From an uncultured Clostridium sp. (lineage in GTDB: Bacteria > Bacillota > Clostridia > TANB77 > CAG-508), in the NCBI GenBank assembly GCA_947303785.1, contig CAMYZH010000003.1, positions 596 to 64,595 of the forward strand: 64,000 nucleotides of DNA, read 5' to 3'. Below the pieces are notes generated by a model. That model saw nothing but the letters and a program-made list of their open reading frames with translations. It had not been told where the DNA came from and searched no databases. Shown one piece after another: positions 1,337 through 63,100 of this stretch (the first letter of the stretch is position 1; each line of letters starts with the position of its first letter). Both the position numbers and the translations under genes were made by a program.

Positions 1337-2152
1337 TTATATTTCAAGTATTTTTTTCTTTAACTCATTAATAATAGCCTTTTTGTTCTCTGAATACAGT
1401 TCAAAATCTATTGATGCATTTTCAATTATATCTTTTTCTTCATTTTGTAATGAATTTTTATTTCTATTCCTCAAAAACAGATATATTACAACCAAATCCA
1501 TTAATCTATAAGCCATAGCTTTTTTATATTTAGGATTTTCTTTATCATCTATTTTTAAACGTTTAATTCTTGGCATTTTAGCAACAGTCCAGTCATCTTG
1601 CCTTTTATCTTTATATTCATATGGGCTCACTTCATTTCTAAAAAAGGCCATAGTCCATGAACGAATCATTTCATCATATTCAGGATTTCTAACAACTTTA
1701 TCTACAAAGTCTAATTCTATCTCTTCATCAAACATTTGAAGTGTTGCAAATGTTAAATTCATTTTTATATATTTATTATTGTCTAAATAATAAACCTTTT
1801 TTAAAAGCTCTAAATCTACCTTTATTGGTAATCTTCCACTAAAATATATTACTGTTTCTTTAAACTCAAATTTATCTTTTTCTGACAAATTATTTATTAA
1901 ATTAATCTCTTCTTGTTCTACCTGCATCTCATATAGTTCACAATTATATAAAAGATTTAATAATTTGTTTAAAAACTTCTGAATCTTAACTAGTTCTTCA
2001 TTATTTTGTAAATCTAAATAATCTCTAACATTATTTGTCAAATCATCATTTAAATCAACCAAAAATCCTTCGATTGCACTTTTAACTGTCTTTTCCTGAA
2101 ATGCATTTATCATTTTTTCATATTTATCATAATAATTATTAGAGTTTCCCAT
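1337..2152 (-). CDS. Hypothetical cytoplasmic protein
   Basis: 271-aa ORF with no recognisable motif. Confidence 0.4.
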   Translation of the reverse strand: MGNSNNYYDKYEKMINAFQEKTVKSAIEGFLVDLNDDLTNNVRDYLDLQNNEELVKIQKFLNKLLNLLYNCELYEMQVEQEEINLINNLSEKDKFEFKETVIYFSGRLPIKVDLELLKKVYYLDNNKYIKMNLTFATLQMFDEEIELDFVDKVVRNPEYDEMIRSWTMAFFRNEVSPYEYKDKRQDDWTVAKMPRIKRLKIDDKENPKYKKAMAYRLMDLVVIYLFLRNRNKNSLQNEEKDIIENASIDFELYSENKKAIINELKKKILEI

Positions 2153-2231
2153 TTCTTACCTTTCTCATCTATACATCTTTTGATTTAATATATCATTTTA
2201 AATCTAGCTAGTCAATCAATTTCCTTTTCAC

Positions 2232-2260
2232 TTTACTTTTACAAAATAAAAGTATATAAT
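2232..2260 (+). promoter_or_regulatory. Sigma-A-type promoter for aqpZ (TTTACT-17 bp-TATAAT)
   Basis: -35 TTTACT at 2232-2237, a 17-bp spacer, and -10 TATAAT at 2255-2260, about 45 bp upstream of the start codon. Confidence 0.5.
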
Positions 2261-2275
2261 CACGTCAAACAAATA

Positions 2276-2294
2276 TACGAATTCAAAATTCGTA
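2276..2294 (+). promoter_or_regulatory. Perfect palindrome TACGAATT-caaa-AATTCGTA between the -10 element and the RBS of aqpZ (candidate operator)
   Basis: 8+8 perfect inverted repeat sitting between the promoter and the Shine-Dalgarno sequence GAAGGAGG. Confidence 0.4.
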
Positions 2295-2306
2295 GAAGGA
2301 GGAAAA

Positions 2307-2990
2307 ATGAAAAAATATATTTGTGAATTCATTGGTACTTTTATACTAGTACTATTAGGATGTGGAACTGCTGCAGTTACAGGAGGAGCACTAAGTATAT
2401 TAGGTGTACTTACAATATCTTTTGCTTTTGGTTTAGCTATCGTTGCAATTGCATATTCAGTAGGAAGAATTTCTGGTGGACATGTAAACCCTGCCGTATC
2501 TCTTGCTATGTTGATTAGTGGAAAAATGACAGTAAAAGACTTTTGTGGTTATGTAGTAGCTCAAATTGCTGGAGCTTTTGCTGGAGCTGGAACACTTTAT
2601 GGAATATTAAGTGCTACAAATCTTACAGATCCAGGACTTGGTGCAAATGGATATGGAGAACTTTCAATGGTAGGATTAGCTCTAGGAGCTGCAGTTATCG
2701 TTGAAATTATTGCTACATGCATATTTGTTTTAGCAATCCTTGGTGTAACTCATGATGACAAATATGATTCAATGGCTGGTCTTGTAATTGGACTTGTATT
2801 AACACTTATTCATATAGTTACAATTCCATTAACAGGAACATCTGTAAACCCTGCAAGAAGCTTCGCTCCTGCCGTAATTGTTGGAGGAACAGCTTTATCT
2901 CAAGTATGGGTATTTATAGTAGCTCCATTTATCGGTGCTGCAATCGCTGCTGTAGTATGGAAATATATTTCTTCAAATTCTGAAGAATAA
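2307..2990 (+). CDS. aqpZ: Aquaporin Z / MIP-family water channel
   Basis: Two NPA boxes (HVNPAVS and SVNPARS) and six predicted TM helices. Confidence 0.9.
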   Translation: MKKYICEFIGTFILVLLGCGTAAVTGGALSILGVLTISFAFGLAIVAIAYSVGRISGGHVNPAVSLAMLISGKMTVKDFCGYVVAQIAGAFAGAGTLYGILSATNLTDPGLGANGYGELSMVGLALGAAVIVEIIATCIFVLAILGVTHDDKYDSMAGLVIGLVLTLIHIVTIPLTGTSVNPARSFAPAVIVGGTALSQVWVFIVAPFIGAAIAAVVWKYISSNSEE

Positions 2991-3022
2991 TTTTTATTTT
3001 AAACATATCAAAAGCCACTAGT

Positions 3023-3052
3023 TATATCTTAACTAGTGGCTTAATTCTTACT
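3023..3052. terminator. Bidirectional terminator hairpin (aagccactagtt...aactagtggctt)
   Basis: 12-bp perfect stem flanked by A/T runs, lying between convergent genes. Confidence 0.6.
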
Positions 3053-3064
3053 ATTTTAAAGAAA

Positions 3065-3829
3065 CTATTTTACTTCTTTAAGTTCCATATCTGCAGAGTC
3101 TTTTAATTCTTCAACAACAGTTTCTATTAAGCTATCGCCTTCTTCTAAGTCGATTTCTAAATCTTCTGCTGTAGCACCATTAAATGAAACAGTCAATTCA
3201 AGTACTTCATCAGATAACCATTTTACTTTACCTTCAGCTTCTACACTACTTGCACCTAATTCACTTGTAAATGAATCTTCAAAACCATCAACAGATTCTT
3301 CCATAGTAGATTTCATCAAATCTATAAAATCCTCATAATCATATACATCTTTAACAGATTCATATGTTTCTTTTATTAAATCTTCCATGTCAATTGTTAA
3401 AACAAGTTTTGTTAATGTTTCATCTGTTCCATAAAGATCCATTGTCCATTCTGTTCCATCTAATCCTGCAGTAGCACTCATATCAATTGTTCCTGAGAAA
3501 TGACGTTCTTTGTTACTTGAAGTTTTTGAAGATTTGCTTGATTTTGAAGATTTTTCATCTTCATCCTCATCTTCATCTTCGTCCTCATCTTCATCTTCGT
3601 CTTCATCTTTGCTAGATTTTTTAGATTCTTTTTCATCTTCATCATTTTTATCAGATTTTTTATTTTTCTTTTCTGATGATTGTGATGTTTCTTCTTTATC
3701 ATCTTCTTTGTCTCCACTTATTTTTACATAAGCAAAAATTCCACCAGCAACAGCTAAGCAAAGAACAAGTACTAAAATGATAACCCAAACCTTAACAGCT
3801 CCTTTTTCATTTAGAAATTTCTTACTCAT
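3065..3829 (-). CDS. Membrane-anchored highly acidic protein (Lys/Ser/Asp/Glu low-complexity region)
   Basis: N-terminal TM helix. The DNA contains a (TCATCY)n repeat that encodes a (DE)n tract. Confidence 0.5.
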   Translation of the reverse strand: MSKKFLNEKGAVKVWVIILVLVLCLAVAGGIFAYVKISGDKEDDKEETSQSSEKKNKKSDKNDEDEKESKKSSKDEDEDEDEDEDEDEDEDEKSSKSSKSSKTSSNKERHFSGTIDMSATAGLDGTEWTMDLYGTDETLTKLVLTIDMEDLIKETYESVKDVYDYEDFIDLMKSTMEESVDGFEDSFTSELGASSVEAEGKVKWLSDEVLELTVSFNGATAEDLEIDLEEGDSLIETVVEELKDSADMELKEVK

Positions 3830-4718: not shown

Positions 4719-6116
4719 TTATGTTACAATATTAGCATTAATCTTATTTTCAGCTTTTTCTGTTTTTTTATCCTCTACAGGCTCCTTTTCTTCAACCTTT
4801 TCTTTAGTTTTTTCTTCAACTTTTGAGTCATCCTCTTGTTCAGATTCTTCATCATCAAGTTTTAGTTTTTTAATTGGAAATTTAGTTCCTTCAATAAGTT
4901 GTTTACTATTTCTCTTTTTATTTTCAACATTTAATAATACATCTTCTGATTCATATTGACCAGGTATAGAAATTCTTGCAACAACACATAATTCTCCGTT
5001 TTTGTTCAAAAACATTTTCATATATCTATCAAAGTTTCCTTTTCCTATTGTAGATTTATATGCAGTAGTATATTCTGTAGATGTTTTATCTATTTCAGTA
5101 GATAAATCAAATGCATAATTTTCATAAAAATCTTTAACTGCATCTGATCCTTTTTCAGCTAAAGAACTTTCTTCTATTTTAGCAGCTTCTAATATTTCTG
5201 AATTAACAATAATGTCTCCAGTATAGACATCAACATTATATACATGATATTCATCAAAGTCATCTTTTCCTATAAAAAATACAACCGACAAAATGTTATC
5301 ATTTTGTGCCCAATAATAGTCACAAGTTGTAATTGCATCATCAGGTAATTTAGTAGCCTTTTCATAAAGTTTTAGTTCTGATTCAACATATCCTTTAATT
5401 TCTTTATTGCAACCTTCAATATAAATTGAATCAATATTAATTACAGGGACTTTATATGTATTTCCAGCAATAGTCTTATTTATAGTGTCATATACTAACT
5501 CTTCATCTTCGTCAACCTTAGTGATTTCTTTTTTATTTTTTTCTTCTTTTACCTCATTTGAAACAGTATTTTCTGATTTTTTACTACTTTTTTTATCAGA
5601 TTCTTCTTTTTCTTCATCTTCATTATCTTCATCTTTTTCTTCTTTTTCAAAAATACTCTCGACTTTTTCAAATATTGAAGATAATGATTCAGGCAATACT
5701 TCTAATTTATAAAGACCATAACAACCAGCAATAAGTAATATAATAATTAAAATTAAAATAAAAAATACTTTTAATCCAGTATGTTTTTTCTTTTTTTCTT
5801 TTTTATCTTCACTGGTTTTTTTTGTAAATTTAGGCTCTTCCTTAGGTTCTTCTTTAATTTCTTCCTTAACTTCTTCTTTAGCTTCTTCCTTAGCTTCAAT
5901 TTCTGAATTTTCTGGTGGTTTTATTTCCTGTTCTTCTGTTGGTACATTTTCATCACTTTTCTCTGCTTCATTAACTTCGTTTTCTGCTGTAATTTTAACT
6001 TCATTTGGAACTTCCATTTTTGCCTGTTCTTCTAAACTCTCTTGTAAATTTACTCCACAGCTCGTACAAAACTTAGCGTTTTCGGCAACGTCAGCTCCAC
6101 ATTTAGGACATTTCAT
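4719..6116 (-). CDS. Zinc-ribbon membrane protein with an acidic linker and an extracytoplasmic domain
   Basis: N-terminal CPKCG...CTSCG zinc-ribbon motif, a K/E-rich stretch, one TM helix, then a C-terminal domain. Confidence 0.5.
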   Translation of the reverse strand: MKCPKCGADVAENAKFCTSCGVNLQESLEEQAKMEVPNEVKITAENEVNEAEKSDENVPTEEQEIKPPENSEIEAKEEAKEEVKEEIKEEPKEEPKFTKKTSEDKKEKKKKHTGLKVFFILILIIILLIAGCYGLYKLEVLPESLSSIFEKVESIFEKEEKDEDNEDEEKEESDKKSSKKSENTVSNEVKEEKNKKEITKVDEDEELVYDTINKTIAGNTYKVPVINIDSIYIEGCNKEIKGYVESELKLYEKATKLPDDAITTCDYYWAQNDNILSVVFFIGKDDFDEYHVYNVDVYTGDIIVNSEILEAAKIEESSLAEKGSDAVKDFYENYAFDLSTEIDKTSTEYTTAYKSTIGKGNFDRYMKMFLNKNGELCVVARISIPGQYESEDVLLNVENKKRNSKQLIEGTKFPIKKLKLDDEESEQEDDSKVEEKTKEKVEEKEPVEDKKTEKAENKINANIVT

Positions 6117-7002: not shown

Positions 7003-7806
7003 TTAATCTAATTCAACTATTGATTTATTATCATCATCATAAATATAAATAACAGTTTCACCATAGAATACCATTCTAATTTTTTCAGTCTTTCCATCTG
7101 CTTTTATTGTTAAAATCACTCTATTAATCTCATCATTATCTCCTGATTGTTTAGGATCTGTTAATGCCATTAATTTTACATCATCATATGTAGCAATCTC
7201 AGGAAGTTTTTCTAGTACACTTTGAACTATTTCATCATCATCTTCTAAAGAAAGATATTCATCTAAAAACTCACTATCACTTCCTTCAACATTATAACAA
7301 GCAGCATATGCTTTTATATCTAAATGGCCTTCAATAAATTTCTCCATTTTTTTCTGGCTTGTTAATCCTTCAACAAAATCATTAACTGCATCTAAATAAA
7401 ATTGTTCTCCATCAAAATTAATCTCATTTTCCTCTTCTTCTGTATCATCACCACTATTACCATCATCATCGTTATTGTCATTGTCATTGTCATCGTCATC
7501 ATCGTCATCGTCATTGTCATCGTCATCGTCATTGTCATTGCTGTTTGTTACATCATTAGTTTCATTTTTCTCATCATCTGTTTTAGTTTTATTATCTGCA
7601 TTCGTTTTATTATCATTTGATGTAGTAGTATTAGTAACATTCGTCATAGCTGTTCCTGTAGAATTATCTAAATTAATAACAGATACATTCTTATTCTTTT
7701 TTCCATCCATTCCAATGATTATAAATACTAATATTGCAATAGCAATAACAACTAAACACATAATAAGGGCAAATAATATTCTTTTATTTCTAAAAATATC
7801 CTTCAT
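7003..7806 (-). CDS. Membrane-anchored secreted protein with a poly-Asp/Asn tract
   Basis: N-terminal TM helix. The DNA carries a (GTCATY)n microsatellite (about 7462-7542) that encodes the DDDDDND... tract. Confidence 0.5.
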   Translation of the reverse strand: MKDIFRNKRILFALIMCLVVIAIAILVFIIIGMDGKKNKNVSVINLDNSTGTAMTNVTNTTTSNDNKTNADNKTKTDDEKNETNDVTNSNDNDDDDDNDDDDDDDDNDNDNNDDDGNSGDDTEEEENEINFDGEQFYLDAVNDFVEGLTSQKKMEKFIEGHLDIKAYAACYNVEGSDSEFLDEYLSLEDDDEIVQSVLEKLPEIATYDDVKLMALTDPKQSGDNDEINRVILTIKADGKTEKIRMVFYGETVIYIYDDDNKSIVELD

Positions 7807-23317: not shown

Positions 23318-23926
23318 TTATAGATATTTTTTAAAGAGATTTAAAAAAAATGTTGACACATATGCCTCTAGCAATGACGAGATTATTACTATTAAAATTG
23401 CAATTAACACAAAGAATAAATATTTAATAATTTCAAACTTTATATCACTCTCTTTTTTTAATGTATTCTTCACAAAATTTACCCCAGCCACTAGAACTAT
23501 AAACATAGATGTTAGATATATTATGTTATGAAAAAGCATTCCACTACAAATAAAAATAATTGATGTTTTTATAGATTGTGTGGCAAAAATTGCAGAAATT
23601 GTATACCCAATAGAAAATGCTTTTTTTACAATCATAAAATAAGAAATTGGAAGTCCTATAATTGTTGTTGATAAACATGCGGCAACCAAAAAATCTTTTA
23701 TATTTCTGTGAATTGATGTAGTAAAAACATCTTTTTGATTAACATTTTGACTACTCTTAATGTTATTAATTCTTTCACTAGTGATTTCTTTAATTATTCT
23801 CTTTTCAGAATTATTAGTGTTATTTATACAGAAAATAGCAATTACAATTCCTGTTATAGTGATTATTAGCAACCTCAAATATTCTGTAATATTATTATAA
23901 AAATATTCCTTAACATATGTCCTCAT
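23318..23926 (-). CDS. SpoIIM-family (DUF95) polytopic membrane protein
   Basis: About 200 aa with 4-5 TM helices and a position next to xerD, as seen in Clostridia/Bacilli. The family assignment rests on architecture only. Confidence 0.4.
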   Translation of the reverse strand: MRTYVKEYFYNNITEYLRLLIITITGIVIAIFCINNTNNSEKRIIKEITSERINNIKSSQNVNQKDVFTTSIHRNIKDFLVAACLSTTIIGLPISYFMIVKKAFSIGYTISAIFATQSIKTSIIFICSGMLFHNIIYLTSMFIVLVAGVNFVKNTLKKESDIKFEIIKYLFFVLIAILIVIISSLLEAYVSTFFLNLFKKYL

Positions 23927-23971
23927 TTGTCCCTCCCTTTTTTCATAAGTATTCCAATAAAATAAAAATAT

Positions 23972-24000
23972 GTGTCAAATGGGACGCCCTTTTTTGACAC
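23972..24000. repeat. Palindromic repeat unit GTGTCAAATGGGACGCCCTTTTTTGACAC (family locus 1a)
   Basis: Self-complementary unit. It recurs at 24063, 48685, 48757, 60354, 60391, 62579 and 62651. Confidence 0.8.
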
Positions 24001-24062
24001 ACTTTTAATTAAATATTTCAATAAAATTGATTAAACAGGCTAAATTTGGGGCAAAAAATGTG

Positions 24063-24094
24063 AGTGTCAAAAAAGGGCGTCCCGTTTGACACTC
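24063..24094. repeat. Palindromic repeat unit in inverted orientation (locus 1b), separated from 1a by about 62 bp
   Basis: Reverse complement of unit 1a with a single mismatch. Confidence 0.8.
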
Positions 24095-24101
24095 ACACCT
24101 A

Positions 24102-25331
24102 TTACATTAATTTGTCTAAATCAGAAAAGATTTCTTCTTTATTCATATTTCTACCAATAAATACAAGTTTGACCATCCTATCACCAACTTCATCATCCCA
24201 TTGTTTCATAATGCTTGGATCTTCTTTTATCATTTGTTCTAATTCTTCTTTTGGCGCAGATGCAATCCAGTATCCCGCTTCTGATAATTGTAATTGTTTT
24301 CCTGCTTGCTCAAAAATGTAAGACATATCATAATCATTCTTAAACCAAACCAAACCCTTACATCTAATTACATTTTTAGGAAATTTAAAATTAACATATT
24401 CTTCAAATTTCTTCGAATCAAAAGGTTTTCTAGAAGTATATACAAATGTTCCTATGCCATATTCTTCAGCTTCTCCTTCATCATGGTGATGATGGTGCCC
24501 ATGATGCTCATGCTCGTGTTCATGCTCTTCATCTTCGTCTTCATCCCCATCATGATGATGGTGGTGTTCATGATCATGATCTTCATCATCATCTTCTTCA
24601 TCTTTTTCTAGTTCTTGAATCCATCCAGCAGAACCAGATATTTTGTCAAAATCAAAATTTCTAGTATCCATAATTTGTCCAACATCAACTTTAGCATAAT
24701 TAGTTTCAATTATCTCTGCAGTTGGTTGAAGAGTTTTAATAACTTTTCTTACCTCATTTAATTCATCTTCTGATATTTCATCAACTTTATTTAATACTAT
24801 AACATTACAAAACTCAATTTGTTGAATCAAAAGGTTTTCAATATCTTCTTCATCAATATCTTCTTTAACTAAATTTTCTCCACATCCAAATTCTGTAGCT
24901 AGTCTTAATGCATCAACAACAGTAACAATATTGTCTAATCTGCAAAGATTTGTCATTCCATAATCAGATAATGAATTTTCTAATACAGAAATTGTTTGAG
25001 CAATTGGCAATGGTTCACAAATACCACTAGCTTCAATCAAAATATAGTCAAATTGTCCTGTTTTCAAAATGTCAACTATTTGTTTCATTAAATCTTCTTT
25101 TAATGTACAACAAATGCAACCGTTTGATAAAGGAACAACTTTTCCATTATCTTTTTCTTGAATAAATCCTCCATCTTGAATTAATTTAGCATCAATATTA
25201 ACTTCCCCTATATCATTTACAATTACCGCAACCTTATATCCTTCTTGATTATTCAAAATATGATTCATTAGTGTTGTTTTTCCAGCACCTAAGTAACCTG
25301 TTAATAATGTAATTCCTGTAGTCTTACTCAT
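24102..25331 (-). CDS. COG0523/CobW-family GTPase with a His-rich insert (Zn metallochaperone-like, ZigA/YciC/Zng1 type)
   Basis: GYLGAGKTTL P-loop, CxCC-like GCICCT segment, and a HDHEHHHHHD...HHGHHHHHDEG histidine tract. Confidence 0.85.
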   Translation of the reverse strand: MSKTTGITLLTGYLGAGKTTLMNHILNNQEGYKVAVIVNDIGEVNIDAKLIQDGGFIQEKDNGKVVPLSNGCICCTLKEDLMKQIVDILKTGQFDYILIEASGICEPLPIAQTISVLENSLSDYGMTNLCRLDNIVTVVDALRLATEFGCGENLVKEDIDEEDIENLLIQQIEFCNVIVLNKVDEISEDELNEVRKVIKTLQPTAEIIETNYAKVDVGQIMDTRNFDFDKISGSAGWIQELEKDEEDDDEDHDHEHHHHHDGDEDEDEEHEHEHEHHGHHHHHDEGEAEEYGIGTFVYTSRKPFDSKKFEEYVNFKFPKNVIRCKGLVWFKNDYDMSYIFEQAGKQLQLSEAGYWIASAPKEELEQMIKEDPSIMKQWDDEVGDRMVKLVFIGRNMNKEEIFSDLDKLM

Positions 25332-45670: not shown

Positions 45671-45753
45671 TGGTGCGGGTGAGAGGACTTGAACCCCCAC
45701 GGTCTCCCACTAGATCCTAAGTCTAGCGCGTCTGCCAGTTCCGCCACACCCGC
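45671..45753 (-). tRNA. tRNA-Leu (anticodon UAG) with an encoded CCA end
   Basis: The reverse complement folds as a cloverleaf: GCGGGTG acceptor, CTAGA-cTTAGga-TCTAG anticodon arm, long variable arm, GTTCAAGT T-loop and ...CACCA 3' end. Confidence 0.8.
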
Positions 45754-47919: not shown

Positions 47920-48684
47920 TTGGAGGAAAATATGATAAAAGTATTAATTAATGGTTGTAATGGTAAAATGGGACAAGAATTATCAAAATCAATCGAAAAA
48001 AATGATAATTTTCAAACAATTTGCGGAGTTGATCGACTAGATACAGGAGATAATAAATATCCAGTATATACTGATCTTTCAAAAATCACAGAAGAACCTG
48101 ATGTAATTATAGATTTTTCAATTCCAAAAGCAACATTGGAAATATTAGAATACGCATCTAAAAAGAAAATTCCAGTTGTTATCGCTACTACTGGTTTTAC
48201 TGCTGAAGAATCTGAAAAAATTAAAGATTATTCAAATACAATTCCAATATTCCAATCATCAAACATGTCTTTTGAAATTAGCCTTATGAATCATATTGTA
48301 GCTGAAGTTGCTAAATATTTAAGCAATTCTGATATTGAAATCATTGAAACACATCATAACAGAAAAATTGATGCACCTTCTGGAACAGCTCTAACTTTAG
48401 CAAACACTATTAATGAAGCTTTAGATAATAAATATCATTATGAATATAATAGACACGCAAAACATGAAAAAAGAGATCCAAAAGAAATAGGTATACATTC
48501 AATCAGAGGTGGAAATGTTGTTGGTGAACATACAGTAAAATTCTATTCAGATACTGAATGTTTTGAGATTACACATACATCACAAAGTAGAGGTGTGTTT
48601 GCAGATGGTGCACTTCATGCGGCTGAGTTTTTGGTTGTACAAGATTCAGGATATTATAATATGTCAAATATTTTCAAAAACTAA
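47920..48684 (+). CDS. dapB: 4-hydroxy-tetrahydrodipicolinate reductase
   Basis: N-terminal NAD(P)-binding segment GCNGKMG and the ETHHNRKIDAPSGTA motif. Confidence 0.9.
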   Translation: MEENMIKVLINGCNGKMGQELSKSIEKNDNFQTICGVDRLDTGDNKYPVYTDLSKITEEPDVIIDFSIPKATLEILEYASKKKIPVVIATTGFTAEESEKIKDYSNTIPIFQSSNMSFEISLMNHIVAEVAKYLSNSDIEIIETHHNRKIDAPSGTALTLANTINEALDNKYHYEYNRHAKHEKRDPKEIGIHSIRGGNVVGEHTVKFYSDTECFEITHTSQSRGVFADGALHAAEFLVVQDSGYYNMSNIFKN

Positions 48685-48714
48685 TGTCAAACGGGACGCC
48701 CCTTTTTGACACTC
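48685..48714. repeat. Palindromic repeat unit (locus 2a)
   Basis: ATGTCAAACGGGACGCCCCTTTTTGACACTC, starting directly after the dapB stop codon. Confidence 0.8.
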
Positions 48715-48756
48715 TTTTTAAAACAAATATCTATAAGATTCAAAGAAATAAAAAAA

Positions 48757-48788
48757 GAGTGTCAAAAAGGGGCGTCCCGTTTGACACT
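48757..48788. repeat. Palindromic repeat unit in inverted orientation (locus 2b)
   Basis: GAGTGTCAAAAAGGGGCGTCCCGTTTGACACT, abutting the stop codon of the convergent LtaS-like gene. Confidence 0.8.
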
Positions 48789-50707
48789 TACTTGCTAAAC
48801 ATATTGTAATAAATAACTTTCCAGTACTCTTGTAATTTATCATAATATGGAGAGTTTTTATCATTGGCATTAAATCTATTTCCATCTTTATCAATTACAT
48901 AATGATTTGTAATAACAGGAAGTTCTTCCCTTAGTTCCTGAATATATTTTGTATATGAATCTGTTGGCATTCCTGCTGTTTCCAATAGCAAACTTTCCAA
49001 ATAATTTGAACTAGTTTCAATTCCTGATTTTTCTTCTATATCATAATTAGCCCAAATAAAGAAAGGTACAACTTGCATTGCTGTCTCTGTATCATATCCT
49101 TCTCTTACGTGATACCAATAATCTTGATTTACATTTGGTTGATGATCTCCAAAAAATAATAAAATAGTCTTTTCATCATAATTTTTCAAATAATTAATAA
49201 ATCCTTCTAAAGCCTTATCTGCAAAATATTCAGATTGAAAATAACTAATAGCAGCATCATTTTGAGGAACGAATTTATTAACCTCTTCCTTTATATAAAC
49301 ATATGGCATATGATTTTGCATTGTAACAATAAAAGAAAAATTCTTCTCTCCTTTTTCTTTATTGTTCATAATATCATAATAAACATTATATGTTGACTCA
49401 TCAGTTGTATACTGCCCAATTCCATATTGAAGATTTAGCATTTTATCCTTAAATAAAGCATTATCAAAACCAAGTAATTTATATATTTTTTCTCTACTAT
49501 ATCCACTCTTATCCCAAGAATGCATTCCATATGTATTATATCCTAGTTTATTCATATATGAAACAATAGATTGCTTAACATCTTTTGTAACATATTGCTG
49601 ATATGGCATAGACCCTGATGGTAAGAAAGCAGTAGCATTTTGTGTTAAAAATTCATACTCTACATTCGCAGTTCCTCCACCAAATTGTGATGAATGCATT
49701 ACTCCACTAACCACATTTTCCTGTTTAATCAATTCATGAAAATAAGGAATTGGATCTTCATTTAATCCTTCAACATCATATACCATATTCAAATCAGCAA
49801 AAGATTCATTCATAATAACAACTACATTTGGATAATCATTTTCATTATTCCAAAATTCGGTATTTTCAATAATTTTATTAGTATCATCCTCATATTTTGC
49901 AAGCACATTTTGAACTTCCTTAACACTATAATTAGCAGGTTTTTTTACAGAAATATCTTTAGCCATCCTAGCAATTGTAAGCCCTGCACCAGAATTGGCG
50001 TATGCTCTATTTATATTCCAAAGTTCAACATCATCAGTAAAATAATTAGGTCCAACTAATGCAATAATACCTACAAAACCTATTAATACAGTTATTGCTT
50101 TAGCTTTAGTTCCTCTTCCTTCTCTTTTATCTTCTATTTTAACAAACTTAAAAGTAATAAATAAACATCCAATAAAAATAATAGTTGCAATTACAAAATT
50201 TTGATTAATTCCAAGTTTAATACCTTTAGCAACATTTGCTGCTGTTCTAATAGAATATATATCAGAAATAGTAATTGACATGCCTCTTAAATCTGTAACA
50301 ACATAATTTATTACTCCAAATAAAAATGTTACACACATTATAACTGTACATGTAAGTTTAGATCTATTAGTCAACCCATAGATAATCCAGTATATAAAAA
50401 TTAGTAAAAAATAATTTGCAAAAAATTTAGGAAACTTAAAAAAGTCCATAAAGGCAGCACAAAAAGCAGTTGAACGTTCTTTCCAACTACTTTTAAAACC
50501 TAACATTTTGTTAAAATAAACTTCATTTCCATTAAGAAATTCAGATATAAAGTAACACTCTAAAAAAAATAACATTATAAAAATTAATTTCTTATAATCA
50601 ATCTTTTTTAAAACATTTTTAACAAATTGTCCTATTTTTTTTAATTTGTAAAATCTAGTATCATTTCCCTCATTTGTTTCTACAACTACTACTTCTTTAC
50701 TATCCAT
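48788..50707 (-). CDS. LtaS-family sulfatase-like phosphoglycerol transferase (lipoteichoic acid synthase-like)
   Basis: Five N-terminal TM helices plus an extracellular alkaline-phosphatase-superfamily domain; 639 aa. Confidence 0.7.
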   Translation of the reverse strand: MDSKEVVVVETNEGNDTRFYKLKKIGQFVKNVLKKIDYKKLIFIMLFFLECYFISEFLNGNEVYFNKMLGFKSSWKERSTAFCAAFMDFFKFPKFFANYFLLIFIYWIIYGLTNRSKLTCTVIMCVTFLFGVINYVVTDLRGMSITISDIYSIRTAANVAKGIKLGINQNFVIATIIFIGCLFITFKFVKIEDKREGRGTKAKAITVLIGFVGIIALVGPNYFTDDVELWNINRAYANSGAGLTIARMAKDISVKKPANYSVKEVQNVLAKYEDDTNKIIENTEFWNNENDYPNVVVIMNESFADLNMVYDVEGLNEDPIPYFHELIKQENVVSGVMHSSQFGGGTANVEYEFLTQNATAFLPSGSMPYQQYVTKDVKQSIVSYMNKLGYNTYGMHSWDKSGYSREKIYKLLGFDNALFKDKMLNLQYGIGQYTTDESTYNVYYDIMNNKEKGEKNFSFIVTMQNHMPYVYIKEEVNKFVPQNDAAISYFQSEYFADKALEGFINYLKNYDEKTILLFFGDHQPNVNQDYWYHVREGYDTETAMQVVPFFIWANYDIEEKSGIETSSNYLESLLLETAGMPTDSYTKYIQELREELPVITNHYVIDKDGNRFNANDKNSPYYDKLQEYWKVIYYNMFSK

Positions 50708-59379: not shown

Positions 59380-60354
59380 ATGAGTTTTGAAAACACAAAA
59401 GATTTATTAAGTTTTTTTTCTGAAGAAAATTTAAGTTTTCTAAAAAACATTAATCAAGAACTATCTAAAATTGATATTCTAACTGAAAAGAACAGAGAAA
59501 AGAAAGAAAAATATTCTTTATTTTTAACTGCCCTTACCACAAAAGACTTTTCAAATACAAATAAAGAATACTTTTTAGATGTAAAAAATATTTATTCCCT
59601 TTTAGATAATAATTCTATAACACTAAAAAATTTAAAAAATACTCTTTCACTTTTAAATGCAAGGCTATTAACATTAGTATTATCAAATGAAAACAGTAAT
59701 ACTGCAGGGCTTGTAAATCAGATAAATGACTTGTTAAATCAATATATAGAACTACTAGATGATATGAAAAAAACATTTGTGCAAAACAATATAACTATAA
59801 ACACATTTACATCATATCATTCTACTAAACTATTACTTACCACATTTGATATGGAACTTGGGGATAATTTAGATGAACAATTAACCCTTGCTTCACCTAA
59901 TGCTACATTTGGTAAAATCGAAACTACATATTCTGATTTATTAGGAATGACCGAAAATGAAACATTAATTATTTCTGAAAAAGAAAACAAAGTATACCTT
60001 CCATATAAGAAAACAGAATTAAAATCATATATGACACAATATCCGAACTCATATTATTCATATAAAAATGTTATAGAAAAAGAATTTATATTACCACTTA
60101 ATTATTTCTCTCATAATCCTTCAATAGCAAGATTCAGAGAGACATACGCATTATATCGTGACAGAGAAGCCTCAAGCATTGTAGAATCTTTAAAACAAGC
60201 ATTTCATCTTGCGTTTAAAGCAGAACTAAATCCCGCAATAATAGCTGCTTGCAAGACAAAAAAACAACTTAACAATTATCTATTATGTTTAAACGAAAAT
60301 AAAGCAGAAGAATTTGCAGATTTTAAAATAGTATATGATATGAATCCAATATAG
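59380..60354 (+). CDS. Hypothetical helical protein
   Basis: ORF with no recognisable motif. Its stop codon overlaps repeat unit 3a. Confidence 0.4.
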   Translation: MSFENTKDLLSFFSEENLSFLKNINQELSKIDILTEKNREKKEKYSLFLTALTTKDFSNTNKEYFLDVKNIYSLLDNNSITLKNLKNTLSLLNARLLTLVLSNENSNTAGLVNQINDLLNQYIELLDDMKKTFVQNNITINTFTSYHSTKLLLTTFDMELGDNLDEQLTLASPNATFGKIETTYSDLLGMTENETLIISEKENKVYLPYKKTELKSYMTQYPNSYYSYKNVIEKEFILPLNYFSHNPSIARFRETYALYRDREASSIVESLKQAFHLAFKAELNPAIIAACKTKKQLNNYLLCLNENKAEEFADFKIVYDMNPI

Positions 60355-60417
60355 TGTCAAATGGGACGGAGGATTTTGACACTAAATTTATGTCAAATGG
60401 GACGCCCTTTTTTGACA
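60354..60417. repeat. Two direct copies of the palindromic repeat unit (locus 3: 60354-60383 and 60391-60417)
   Basis: GTGTCAAATGGGACGGAGGATTTTGACACT and TGTCAAATGGGACGCCCTTTTTTGACA. Confidence 0.8.
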
Positions 60418-60502
60418 GCTTTAAAATGTATAAATAAAAAACACTAATATGTCACAGTTTTTAACTACATTCCATATTAGTGTTTTTATATTTCTTTAGT
60501 TT

Positions 60503-62565: not shown

Positions 62566-62693
62566 TGTCAAACGGGACTGTCAAATGGGACGGGCTATTT
62601 TGACACTCTAAAAAAATAAATACCAATAAGTTTTAGTATTAATACTTAAAGAGTGTCAAAATAGCCCGTCCCATTTGACAGCCCCGTTTGACA
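62566..62693. repeat. Compound palindrome: [partial unit][full unit]-42 bp-[full unit, inverted][partial unit, inverted] (locus 4)
   Basis: TGTCAAACGGGAC|TGTCAAATGGGACGGGCTATTTTGACACTC ... GAGTGTCAAAATAGCCCGTCCCATTTGACA|GCCCCGTTTGACA. Confidence 0.8.
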
Positions 62694-62694
62694 T

Positions 62695-62735
62695 AAAAAA
62701 GTCACCTAATTCAGGTGTAGCCTAAATTAGGTGAT
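62695..62735 (-). terminator. rnpB terminator (cacctaatt...aattaggtg followed by T run on the minus strand)
   Basis: Perfect 9-bp stem immediately 3' of the RNase P RNA, then TTTTTTAT. Confidence 0.65.
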
Positions 62736-62740
62736 ATAAA

Positions 62741-63100
62741 AAGTAAGTCTATAAGCCGGGTTCTGTCTTGAATAGCCATTTATCTAGGATATATATCACT
62801 ATATACCTCAAGCCACCTACGCTAAACCAAAAAGAGACGAGCAGTCTTTATCTTTTTGTTAATTGCAAGATGTTGCTCCAGGTGGGGTTTACACGAACAA
62901 GGAATATCACTATTCCTCCGGTGAGCTCTTACCTCACCTTTTCACCCTTACCTTATATATTATAAGGCGGTAATTTTCTGTTGCACTTTCCTTAAGGTCT
63001 CCCTCACTAGACGTTATCTAGCACCATTGCTCTATGGGGCCCGGACTTTCCTCTCATGAATTCTCACGAATTTCATCAGCGACTATTCGGCTTACTCTAT
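62741..63100 (-). ncRNA. rnpB: RNase P RNA, bacterial type A
   Basis: The reverse complement contains GGAAAGTCCGGGC-CCATAG-GCA, AAGGAAAGTGCAACAGAAA, GGTAAGGGTGAAAAGGTG-GGTAAGAGC-CACC, GTGTAAACCCCACC-GGAGCAA and the 3' GACAGAACCCGGCTTA. The 5' UAAGCCG pairs with the 3' CGGCUUA to form P1. Confidence 0.85.

Follow-up and report, generated by a model that had tools for sequence, protein, structure and literature searches.

A dispersed hairpin repeat, probably of REP type, at gene 3′ ends in low-GC uncultured gut Clostridia

Repetitive extragenic palindromic (REP) sequences, together with bacterial interspersed mosaic elements (BIMEs) and REP doublets forming hairpins (REPINs), are well studied in Proteobacteria, but for low-GC Firmicutes there are hardly any descriptions of REP-type repeats, and for the uncultured gut Clostridia with small genomes which are dominant in many metagenomes there are none. 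In Enterobacteria and Pseudomonas they are imperfect palindromes of 20-40 bp which are extragenic and multi-copy, lie between tandem or convergent genes downstream of open reading frames (ORFs), form inverted doublets that fold into a long hairpin, show no target duplication, are distributed patchily between relatives and in many cases lie ≤ 15 nt from a stop codon (PMC3733652, PMC12306157, PMC5581495). REP dimers, too, are reported to follow ORFs, where the neighbouring genes are unidirectional or convergent (PMC3733652). We found a family of short hairpin repeats which is alike in all of these respects in a 64,000-nucleotide stretch of DNA (hereafter "the window") from an uncultured Clostridium sp. 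(GTDB lineage CAG-508; assembly GCA_947303785.1, contig CAMYZH010000003.1). The family is genuine, previously undescribed and of a familiar kind: it is probably a REP/REPIN-like dispersed hairpin repeat of low-GC uncultured gut Clostridia which forms an RNA hairpin at the 3′ ends of transcripts. Among the options offered by an initial annotation of the window, a REP/BIME-like element is the best fit, as the repeats are short imperfect extragenic palindromes which are multi-copy, form doublets, are patchy in distribution and are structurally unstable.

Tagged REP superfamilies are defined by a GTAG or CGTC which stays unpaired at the stem foot, and Di Nocera et al. report no tagged REP families in Firmicutes, and CGTC repeats without a dedicated transposase (PMC3733652). 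The family described here differs from REPs and REPINs in that it has no unpaired GTAG tag, no REP-associated tyrosine transposase (RAYT) flanked by units was found in the DNA examined, the host is a low-GC Firmicute, the unit is identical across genera and the spacers of the window's doublets are not conserved. With the CGTC-tagged REPs, including dRS3 of Neisseria (PMC3733652), it shares a conserved block which on the other strand begins with CGTC (CGTCCCRTTTGACA); in those repeats, too, the tag may be TGTC, no dedicated transposase is known and head-to-head dimers predominate. However, CGTC-tagged REPs have an unpaired tag, a stem of 8-9 bp, a loop of 4-5 nt and a CCA tail, whereas in our units the CGTC lies in the loop, the 5′ TGTC is paired with GACA and the inner part is ~13 nt long.

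A pattern search of the window for TGTCAAA-N(8-16)-TTTGACA returned eight exact matches at four loci, every one with an interior of 13 bases (Table 1), compared with a mean of 0.01 in dinucleotide-preserving shuffles, so the recurring self-complementary unit first noticed at these four loci was borne out. The consensus of 27 bp is TGTCAAAY-GGGACG-N6-TTTGACA, with an outer stem of 7-8 bp (TGTCAAA/TTTGACA) which is often lengthened by locus-specific flanking pairs, giving a unit size of ~27-33 bp. The inner part opens with an invariant GGGACG. The conserved block is the asymmetric 14-mer TGTCAAAYGGGACG, followed by six variable, lineage-specific bases and then TTTGACA; position 14 was G in 55 of 57 units, though it lies outside the search pattern. 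The core that had been proposed before, GGGACGCCC, occurs in only 5 of the 8 window units and is a lineage-specific variant rather than the core. The 13-mer TGTCAAAYGGGAC has 10 copies in the window at ≤ 1 mismatch, comprising the eight units and two 13-bp half-units which directly bracket the pair at locus 4. A covariance model, built on 56 distinct units pooled from all sources, gave exactly the eight units at 40-45 bits and ≤ 12 bits for the rest of the window, and a repeat search identified the units as the window's sole interspersed non-coding repeat family.

The window has a G+C content of 27.6%, is 86.8% coding and contains 58 ORFs, 51 of which are on the minus strand. As originally described, all four loci are intergenic; they fall within the ~13% non-coding share, for which our own arithmetic gives a chance of ~0.13^4 = ~3e-4. 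The inverted pairs at loci 1, 2 and 4 (gaps of 65 bp, 48 bp and 48 bp between the paired 27-mers) and the direct copies at locus 3 were also as described, but locus 4 turned out to be a nested or duplicated arrangement, not a simple pair. The claim of a stop codon directly beside every locus is true of locus 2 (on both sides, at 0-1 nt) and locus 3 (0 nt), and more or less of locus 1 (10 nt), but not of locus 4, which lies behind the terminator of the RNase P RNA.

The same preference for gene ends was found beyond the window. We classified 50 13-mer sites (copies of the conserved arm at non-redundant loci): the flanking genes were tandem at 38 of them, convergent at 9 and divergent at 1, and 2 fell in ORFs which look over-called. 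Distances from stop codon to unit clustered at 0-13 nt. When "forward" is defined as the conserved 14-mer coming first, read in the sense of the upstream gene, 16 of the units starting ≤ 15 nt past a stop were forward relative to that gene and 2 were reverse. In an alignment of the 56 units, a 15-pair hairpin had 81% of its cells paired, compared with 41-50% when the partner columns were slid, and three pairs outside the conserved stem covary among U-A, G-C and A-U (26-29 paired vs 18-20 expected; shuffle p ~0.003-0.008 per pair). The inner pairs are G-U or G-C and never A-C. The forward (sense) strand thus folds better, because its G-U pairs are A-C mismatches on the complementary strand. Single units folded at -10 to -24 kcal/mol (z -3.4 to -5.6) and the doublets at loci 1, 2 and 4 at -57 to -85 kcal/mol. 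U-runs come after units 2, 3 and 4, which are the sole terminator-like structures behind their genes; units 5-8 have no intrinsic-terminator feature (hairpin plus U-run). The orientation bias, the G-U asymmetry and the stable folds make a hairpin terminator or RNA-stability element, one of the first suggestions made for these repeats, a likely activity, but a U-tail is present on some units only. Each unit also contains outward TTGACA hexamers, but no unit-based promoter passed a promoter scan and a promoter reading was rejected.

The motif also occurs outside the window. When one genome per species was scanned, 40 DNA stretches contained the unit, where ~17 chance matches would be expected in 596 Gb by our own arithmetic. 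The high-GC matches look like chance noise, but ~27 matches came from low-GC metagenome-assembled genomes (MAGs) of uncultured Clostridia from human, chicken and rabbit gut, including 14 from a single MAG, and these agree with one another beyond the search pattern, most often as GGGACGGTTCT. In metagenomes, the window-type 27-mer matched 12 contigs of other low-GC species, and an identical 27-mer lies in a contig whose dapA has 72% DNA identity to that of the window. Across genera the 14-mer occurs in the "dialects" AAAT, AAAC, AATT and AGTT. The loci of related MAGs contain dozens of units, which were found as singles, direct tandems, inverted doublets (spacers of 8-130 bp) and nested copies, with single units and direct tandems as common as doublets. 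One MAG carries an identical 70-bp doublet at three loci and a 180-bp composite at two, and at least some elements must therefore have been copied as wholes. Among viral contigs we found one chance-like match, and the plasmid and phage collections gave nothing relevant. Nor does the family match a known annotated repeat: no Rfam family passed the gathering threshold for the loci (RNase P and one tRNA are all that pass it within the window), the only matches of the loci in E-value mode were to generic long-hairpin (miRNA precursor) models and were below threshold, and the literature searched contained neither the unit sequence nor anything specific on miniature inverted-repeat transposable elements (MITEs) or REPs in Clostridia.

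Three Bacteroidaceae genomes, close relatives of one another, each contain one identical unit, inside a AAAAAAGG...CCTTTTTT hairpin. This is an exact Clostridia-type unit (TGTCAAATGGGACGGTTCTCTTTGACA; L008:5587-5613, also L015 and L028, the L numbers being our designations for the loci and contigs examined), situated between two housekeeping genes, for GH31 and a THUMP methyltransferase, in a genome of 51% G+C. The copy may reflect a cross-phylum transfer. Relatives of the carriers have unrelated sequence at that site, including another palindromic element (L062). No clean empty site was found, as the intergenic region is wholly different in relatives whose methyltransferase is 82-90% identical, and the insertion borders are therefore not definable.

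An asymmetric core which is identical across genera, comes in dialects, commonly forms inverted pairs at gene ends and reaches a Bacteroidaceae genome is also what might be seen if the 14-mer resembled a DNA-uptake signal, accumulating via competence uptake, with its inverted pairs co-opted as terminators as in Neisseria and Pasteurellaceae. There is a precedent in the DNA uptake sequences (DUS) and uptake signal sequences (USS) of terminators, which are likewise short asymmetric cores in close inverted copies forming terminator hairpins (PMC1852404). However, those sequences are about ten times denser (~1 per kb, against ~1 per 6-8 kb here), are found in coding DNA and as lone copies as well, and are those of naturally competent Proteobacteria. 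In our 87% coding window 0 of the 10 copies are coding, nearly every 13-mer has a partner arm, and there are related species without the motif. To our knowledge no sequence-specific DNA uptake is known in Gram-positive bacteria, which also counts against this explanation, and we consider it extremely improbable.

Exact look-ups of three window proteins gave no match, and contigs related to the window were found via homologues of DapB (L041, L042 and L043) and via the amylase next to loci 3 and 4 (L057 and L058-L061). L042 and L057 represent a strain of ~95-99% DNA identity in sample DRR507835. In L041 (DapB 98% identical at the protein level, ~96% DNA identity to the window) the same doublet follows dapB, and exactly at its right end (window 48787/48788) there is an extra segment of 2.0 kb (L041:917-2949) which is absent from the window. 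This segment carries a disrupted (frameshifted) ABC-type ATPase gene (510 + 73 aa), is bounded by direct 13-mer copies (GTCCCGTTTGACAC and ATCCCTTTTGTCAC) and is a real indel and not a chimera, since window synteny resumes on its far side. The spacer of locus 2 has the same orientation in both, so we saw no evidence of inversion and rejected an invertible switch. L042 (DapB 94%) ends inside a unit and contains an 8-bp duplication (TCAAACGG). In L057, in which the amylase protein is identical (~98.6% DNA identity), locus 3 with its two units is the same as in the window, whereas locus 4 consists of one unit and degenerate 13-mers in place of the window's nested pair: unit 8 is present, while unit 7 and the outer half-unit 62681-62693 are absent. 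L058-L061 (amylase 79% identical at the protein level, syntenic) have no units and carry unrelated long palindromes at the same intergenic positions.

Taken together, relatives with 79-85% identity in the flanking proteins (DapB, amylase) have no unit in ~42 kb of syntenic DNA, and two loci (2 and 4) differ structurally between near-identical strains (≥ 96% DNA identity); some contigs end inside units. We conclude that the family is lineage-restricted and that its loci are hot spots of structural change. Other long palindromic elements, unrelated to the unit, were seen at L058:11453-11616 and L058:9190-9400 and in L004 and L020 (inner 90 bp), including some with inverted ends of ~28-33 bp and a shared GGTCGCTGCGCAA-type motif, and in this clade several families of hairpin repeats seem to take one another's place.

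L043 (DapB 85%, syntenic over 20.7 kb) has no unit and instead has a plain hairpin terminator in the spacer between dapB and the sulfatase gene (L043:10754-10822). Its arms (AGAGTATCAGAAAA / TTTTTTGATACTCT) are almost the same as the outer arms in the window's units, without the GGGACG, and compared with the window (48685-48787) they show a compensatory pair (TATCA/TGATA vs TGTCA/TGACA). The hairpin may be a relative which has decayed or a progenitor, or the likeness may be coincidental. The likeness of its arms to those of the unit, and an A-run/T-run outer stem typical of bidirectional terminators, would fit a family of ordinary intrinsic terminators which had become alike by convergence or local descent, with no copying mechanism. 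However, convergence is ruled out by the invariant GGGACG together with identical 27-mers at non-orthologous sites in genomes of ~72% DNA identity, and many units lack a T-run or lie inside operons, so that such an account as a whole is very unlikely.

The genes adjoining units are overwhelmingly housekeeping genes. Candidate defence genes of the PADLOC families PDC-S01 (AAA_14/DUF4143 ATPase) and PDC-S04 (Fic/DOC) lie directly beside units at L005:492-1784(-) and L034:3832-4311. A complete type III toxin-antitoxin (ToxIN/AbiQ) module was found between two inverted units at L013:2105-3098; its AbiQ/ToxN gene is at 2237-2764(-), a 39-nt toxI-like repeat is present in 2.8 copies at 2835-2946, and there is also a terminator. 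L005 and L013 have only their left flank in common at the unit site of the toxin-antitoxin module.

Such arrangements raise the question of whether the unit could be the site of a host site-specific recombinase bordering gene cassettes, like the Xer-dependent pdif/xrs modules of Acinetobacter plasmids (bioRxiv 10.1101/2022.12.17.520857; PMC10132070). In both systems the sites are short and have two inverted arms, the units here border two variable segments (ToxIN and the ABC ATPase), and an insertion sequence (IS) of the IS1202 family lies a few bp from a unit in L033. The 2.0-kb segment in L041 begins exactly at the unit end, with direct 13-mers and synteny on both sides, the ToxIN/AbiQ module lies between inverted units, PDC-S01 and PDC-S04/Fic genes adjoin units, and L005 and L013 agree on one flank of the unit only. 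Unlike the 11-6-11 dif-like sites of the Xer modules, the units are chromosomal, very numerous, mostly flank nothing and are 27 bp long with unequal arms. The IS in L033 belongs to the long-duplication subgroup of IS1202, reported not to target xrs, as judged from its duplication of ~31 bp. Approximately one locus per 16 kb would, if active, scramble the chromosome, yet the neighbours are mostly housekeeping genes in conserved order; no resemblance to dif was seen by eye and no recombinase was seen nearby; and neither the orientation bias nor the G-U asymmetry would be expected of a site acting as double-stranded DNA. Slippage or short-repeat recombination explains the indels equally well, and some joins in the MAGs could be assembly chimeras. 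We consider a recombination site to be quite unlikely.

MITEs of bacteria, such as the Correia elements of Neisseria, RUP of pneumococcus and bcr1 of the Bacillus cereus group, have target-site duplications (TA and others), a conserved internal sequence and mostly a known or suspected parent IS. Like our repeats they are small and non-coding, have inverted repeats, can be transcribed as hairpins and are possible terminators or promoters, but target duplication, conserved interior and parent IS were not found for the family described here. If the inverted doublets were MITEs, they would be deletion derivatives of a DDE IS with terminal inverted repeats (TGTCAAATGGGACG...), moved by a transposase in trans. 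The doublets do end in TG...CA and have perfect inverted arms of 27-33 bp, identical elements of 62-70 bp occur at several loci of one MAG, and an ISNCY/IS1202-like DDE transposase (248.6 bits against NF033594, for which the cut-off is 250) lies between two units in L033. This IS is ~1.7 kb long (L033:1987-3713; transposase ORF 2140-3516(-)), contains several internal copies of TTTTTAGTAAAAATGTCCC and has an empty allele at L024:4960-5003. Alignment of L033 with L024 gave the IS its own ends (TTTTTAGTAAAAATGTCCC) and its own target duplication of ~31 bp; it had therefore merely inserted a few bp from a unit, and we rejected it as the parent element. Its transposase has no homologue in the window, and no other transposase homologue was present in the window or the loci examined. 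No target-site duplication or direct repeat was found at > 15 inspected element borders, where the flanks were more often mutually complementary. Moreover, singles and direct tandems are no rarer than doublets, and the spacers of the window's doublets are unrelated. The MITE-like element which the initial annotation also entertained thus lacks both a target-site duplication and a parent transposon with unit ends among the DNA examined, and we regard it as unlikely. CRISPR-like arrays were rejected by eye, without a formal test, since spacers are absent and no more than 6-9 bp separates direct copies; the Spo0A box (TGTCGAA), cre, CIRCE, the LexA box, dif and tRNA-like motifs were rejected in the same way.

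We therefore favour the REP/REPIN-like reading, as probable. The most likely activity is at the RNA level, as a 3′-end hairpin; from the sequence features described above we infer co-transcription with the upstream gene and an effect of the RNA. The unit would be transcribed as the end of the upstream mRNA. A hairpin with a U-run would then terminate transcription, in the window behind the CobW-like, dapB and sulfatase genes, and one without a U-run may protect the mRNA 3′ end from exonucleases. Where a unit lies ≤ ~15 nt past the stop codon it may also impede the terminating ribosome, as reported for REPs of E. coli in a 2015 study, according to the summary in PMC12306157. New copies would arise in trans, through a putative enzyme whose gene lies at another place in the genome; by analogy we favour an enzyme of the HUH/Y1 (RAYT) type, specific for hairpins of single-stranded DNA, and spread by recombination or gene conversion would be the alternative. 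Resident hairpins may in turn provoke slippage, palindrome extension and recombination, which would produce the tandem duplications of 8-35 bp, the nested copies and the strain-level indels.

Several observations weigh against this reading. Among 2422 ORFs from the window and 68 loci, only ~460 kb of unit-centred DNA, we found no Y1, RAYT or IS200-like ORF, and hence no cognate RAYT of the kind first envisaged; this search was limited, as it used phmmer with three approximate queries (IS200, IS608 and the E. coli RAYT). Nothing better than E = 0.2 was returned, and the best match to the RAYT query was a YqeY protein. Group 1 RAYTs do occur in Clostridia (PMC5581495). The three spacers of the window's doublets are unrelated, unlike those of REPINs, which replicate as a unit, and there is no unpaired GTAG or CGTC tag at the stem foot, the CGTC being looped and the 5′ TGTC stem-paired as noted above. 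With regard to function, a T-run follows only ~6 of the 16 stop-adjacent units (~10, in other genomes, have none), loci 3 and 4 have separate canonical terminators and one unit is located between accD and accA; for these three reasons termination cannot be the general role. It should also be noted that the orientation bias could partly reflect the replication strand instead of transcription, since 51 of the 58 window genes are on one strand.

The features of the four loci are listed in Table 1. Locus 1 is flanked on one side by the stop of a CobW-family GTPase gene (24102-25331, -) and on the other by a SpoIIM-like gene start (23318-23926, -). Unit 2 is terminator-like, as its stem is lengthened by GTGAG/CTCAC and followed by UUUUUU, and the surrounding sequence (24050-24100(-)) folds at -24 kcal/mol (z -5.6). 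Locus 2 occupies the entire spacer between the convergent dapB (stop 48684) and sulfatase/LtaS-like (stop 48788) genes and folds as a whole at -62.9 kcal/mol (z -14.8). Beyond the units of locus 3 the sequence reads as a separate AT-rich bidirectional hairpin terminator at ~60436-60489, and a convergent alpha-amylase gene comes next. Locus 4 has the RNase P RNA terminator (62702-62734) on one side and a DUF4116 gene on the other, and as a whole it gives a fold of -84.8 kcal/mol (z -19.4); the RNase P RNA itself is of bacterial class A (62736-63098, minus strand, 280 bits). The class of this RNA, the G+C content of 27.6% and the closest homologues with a name (Clostridia MAGs, Candidatus Scatovivens) assign the window to uncultured gut Clostridia.

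Table 1 Repeat units, half-units and spacers at the four loci of the window.
Feature	Position	Strand	Remarks
Unit 1 (TGTCAAATGGGACGCCCTTTTTTGACA)	23973..23999	+	Left member of the locus 1 inverted pair; exact pattern; covariance match 23970-24002, 44.9 bits; RNA fold -14.1 kcal/mol, z -4.7; 47 nt upstream of SpoIIM-like gene start (23926)
Locus 1 spacer	24000..24064	.	Dissimilar to spacers of loci 2 and 4; repeat similarity ends a few bases past the units
Unit 2	24065..24091	-	Forward relative to CobW-family gene 24102-25331(-), 10 nt past its stop
Unit 3	48685..48711	+	Begins at first base after dapB stop codon (48682-48684); followed by CUCUUUUU; fold -10.2 kcal/mol
Locus 2 spacer	48712..48759	.	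Arms run on into spacer as CACTCTTTTT / AAAAAAAGAGTG
Unit 4	48760..48786	-	Forward relative to sulfatase/LtaS-like gene 48788-50707(-), 1 nt past its stop; followed by UCUUUUUUU; fold -14.6 kcal/mol
Unit 5	60355..60381	+	Variable part GAGGAT; begins at first base after TAG stop of ORF 59380-60354
Unit 6	60391..60417	+	Direct copy, 9 bp beyond unit 5
Outer half-unit TGTCAAACGGGAC	62566..62578	+	Tandem 13-mer abutting unit 7
Unit 7	62579..62605	+	Variable part GGCTAT; left member of the locus 4 inverted pair
Unit 8	62654..62680	-	Right member of the locus 4 inverted pair
Outer half-unit TGTCAAACGGGGC	62681..62693	-	One mismatch; rnpB terminator just beyond

Elsewhere in the window there is one tRNA (45674-45753, minus strand), and low-complexity sequence with a trinucleotide period (GAT/GAA-type on the coding strand) was found at 3533-3639, 5580-5914, 7456-7553 and 24513-24616. 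These runs lie inside minus-strand ORFs, where they encode acidic protein stretches, His-rich in the case of the CobW-like gene, and are unrelated to the repeat.

A further and rather improbable possibility is that the 14-mer TGTCAAAYGGGACG is a signal for a dedicated protein across genera of gut Clostridia, with at least one transfer to Bacteroidaceae, and that a host system inserts hairpins 3′ of stop codons and/or exchanges accessory cassettes (ToxIN, ATPases). If this were true, the family would represent a chromosomal counterpart of the Xer-dependent modules, or a transposase-independent mode of REP spread.

The REP/REPIN-like family is a variation on a known theme and not a new kind of system. 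The features which make it stand out are its position 0-13 nt past stop codons, biased 16:2 in orientation, its identical sequence across genera and the lack of a visible transposase in the DNA examined. For those working with these genomes, it breaks assemblies and marks strain differences, with indels of 75 bp to 2 kb. In the organisms themselves, the units probably set the 3′ ends of many mRNAs, and the family is a convenient case in which to study the spread of REP-like repeats without a RAYT and the regulation of translation by stop-proximal hairpins outside E. coli.

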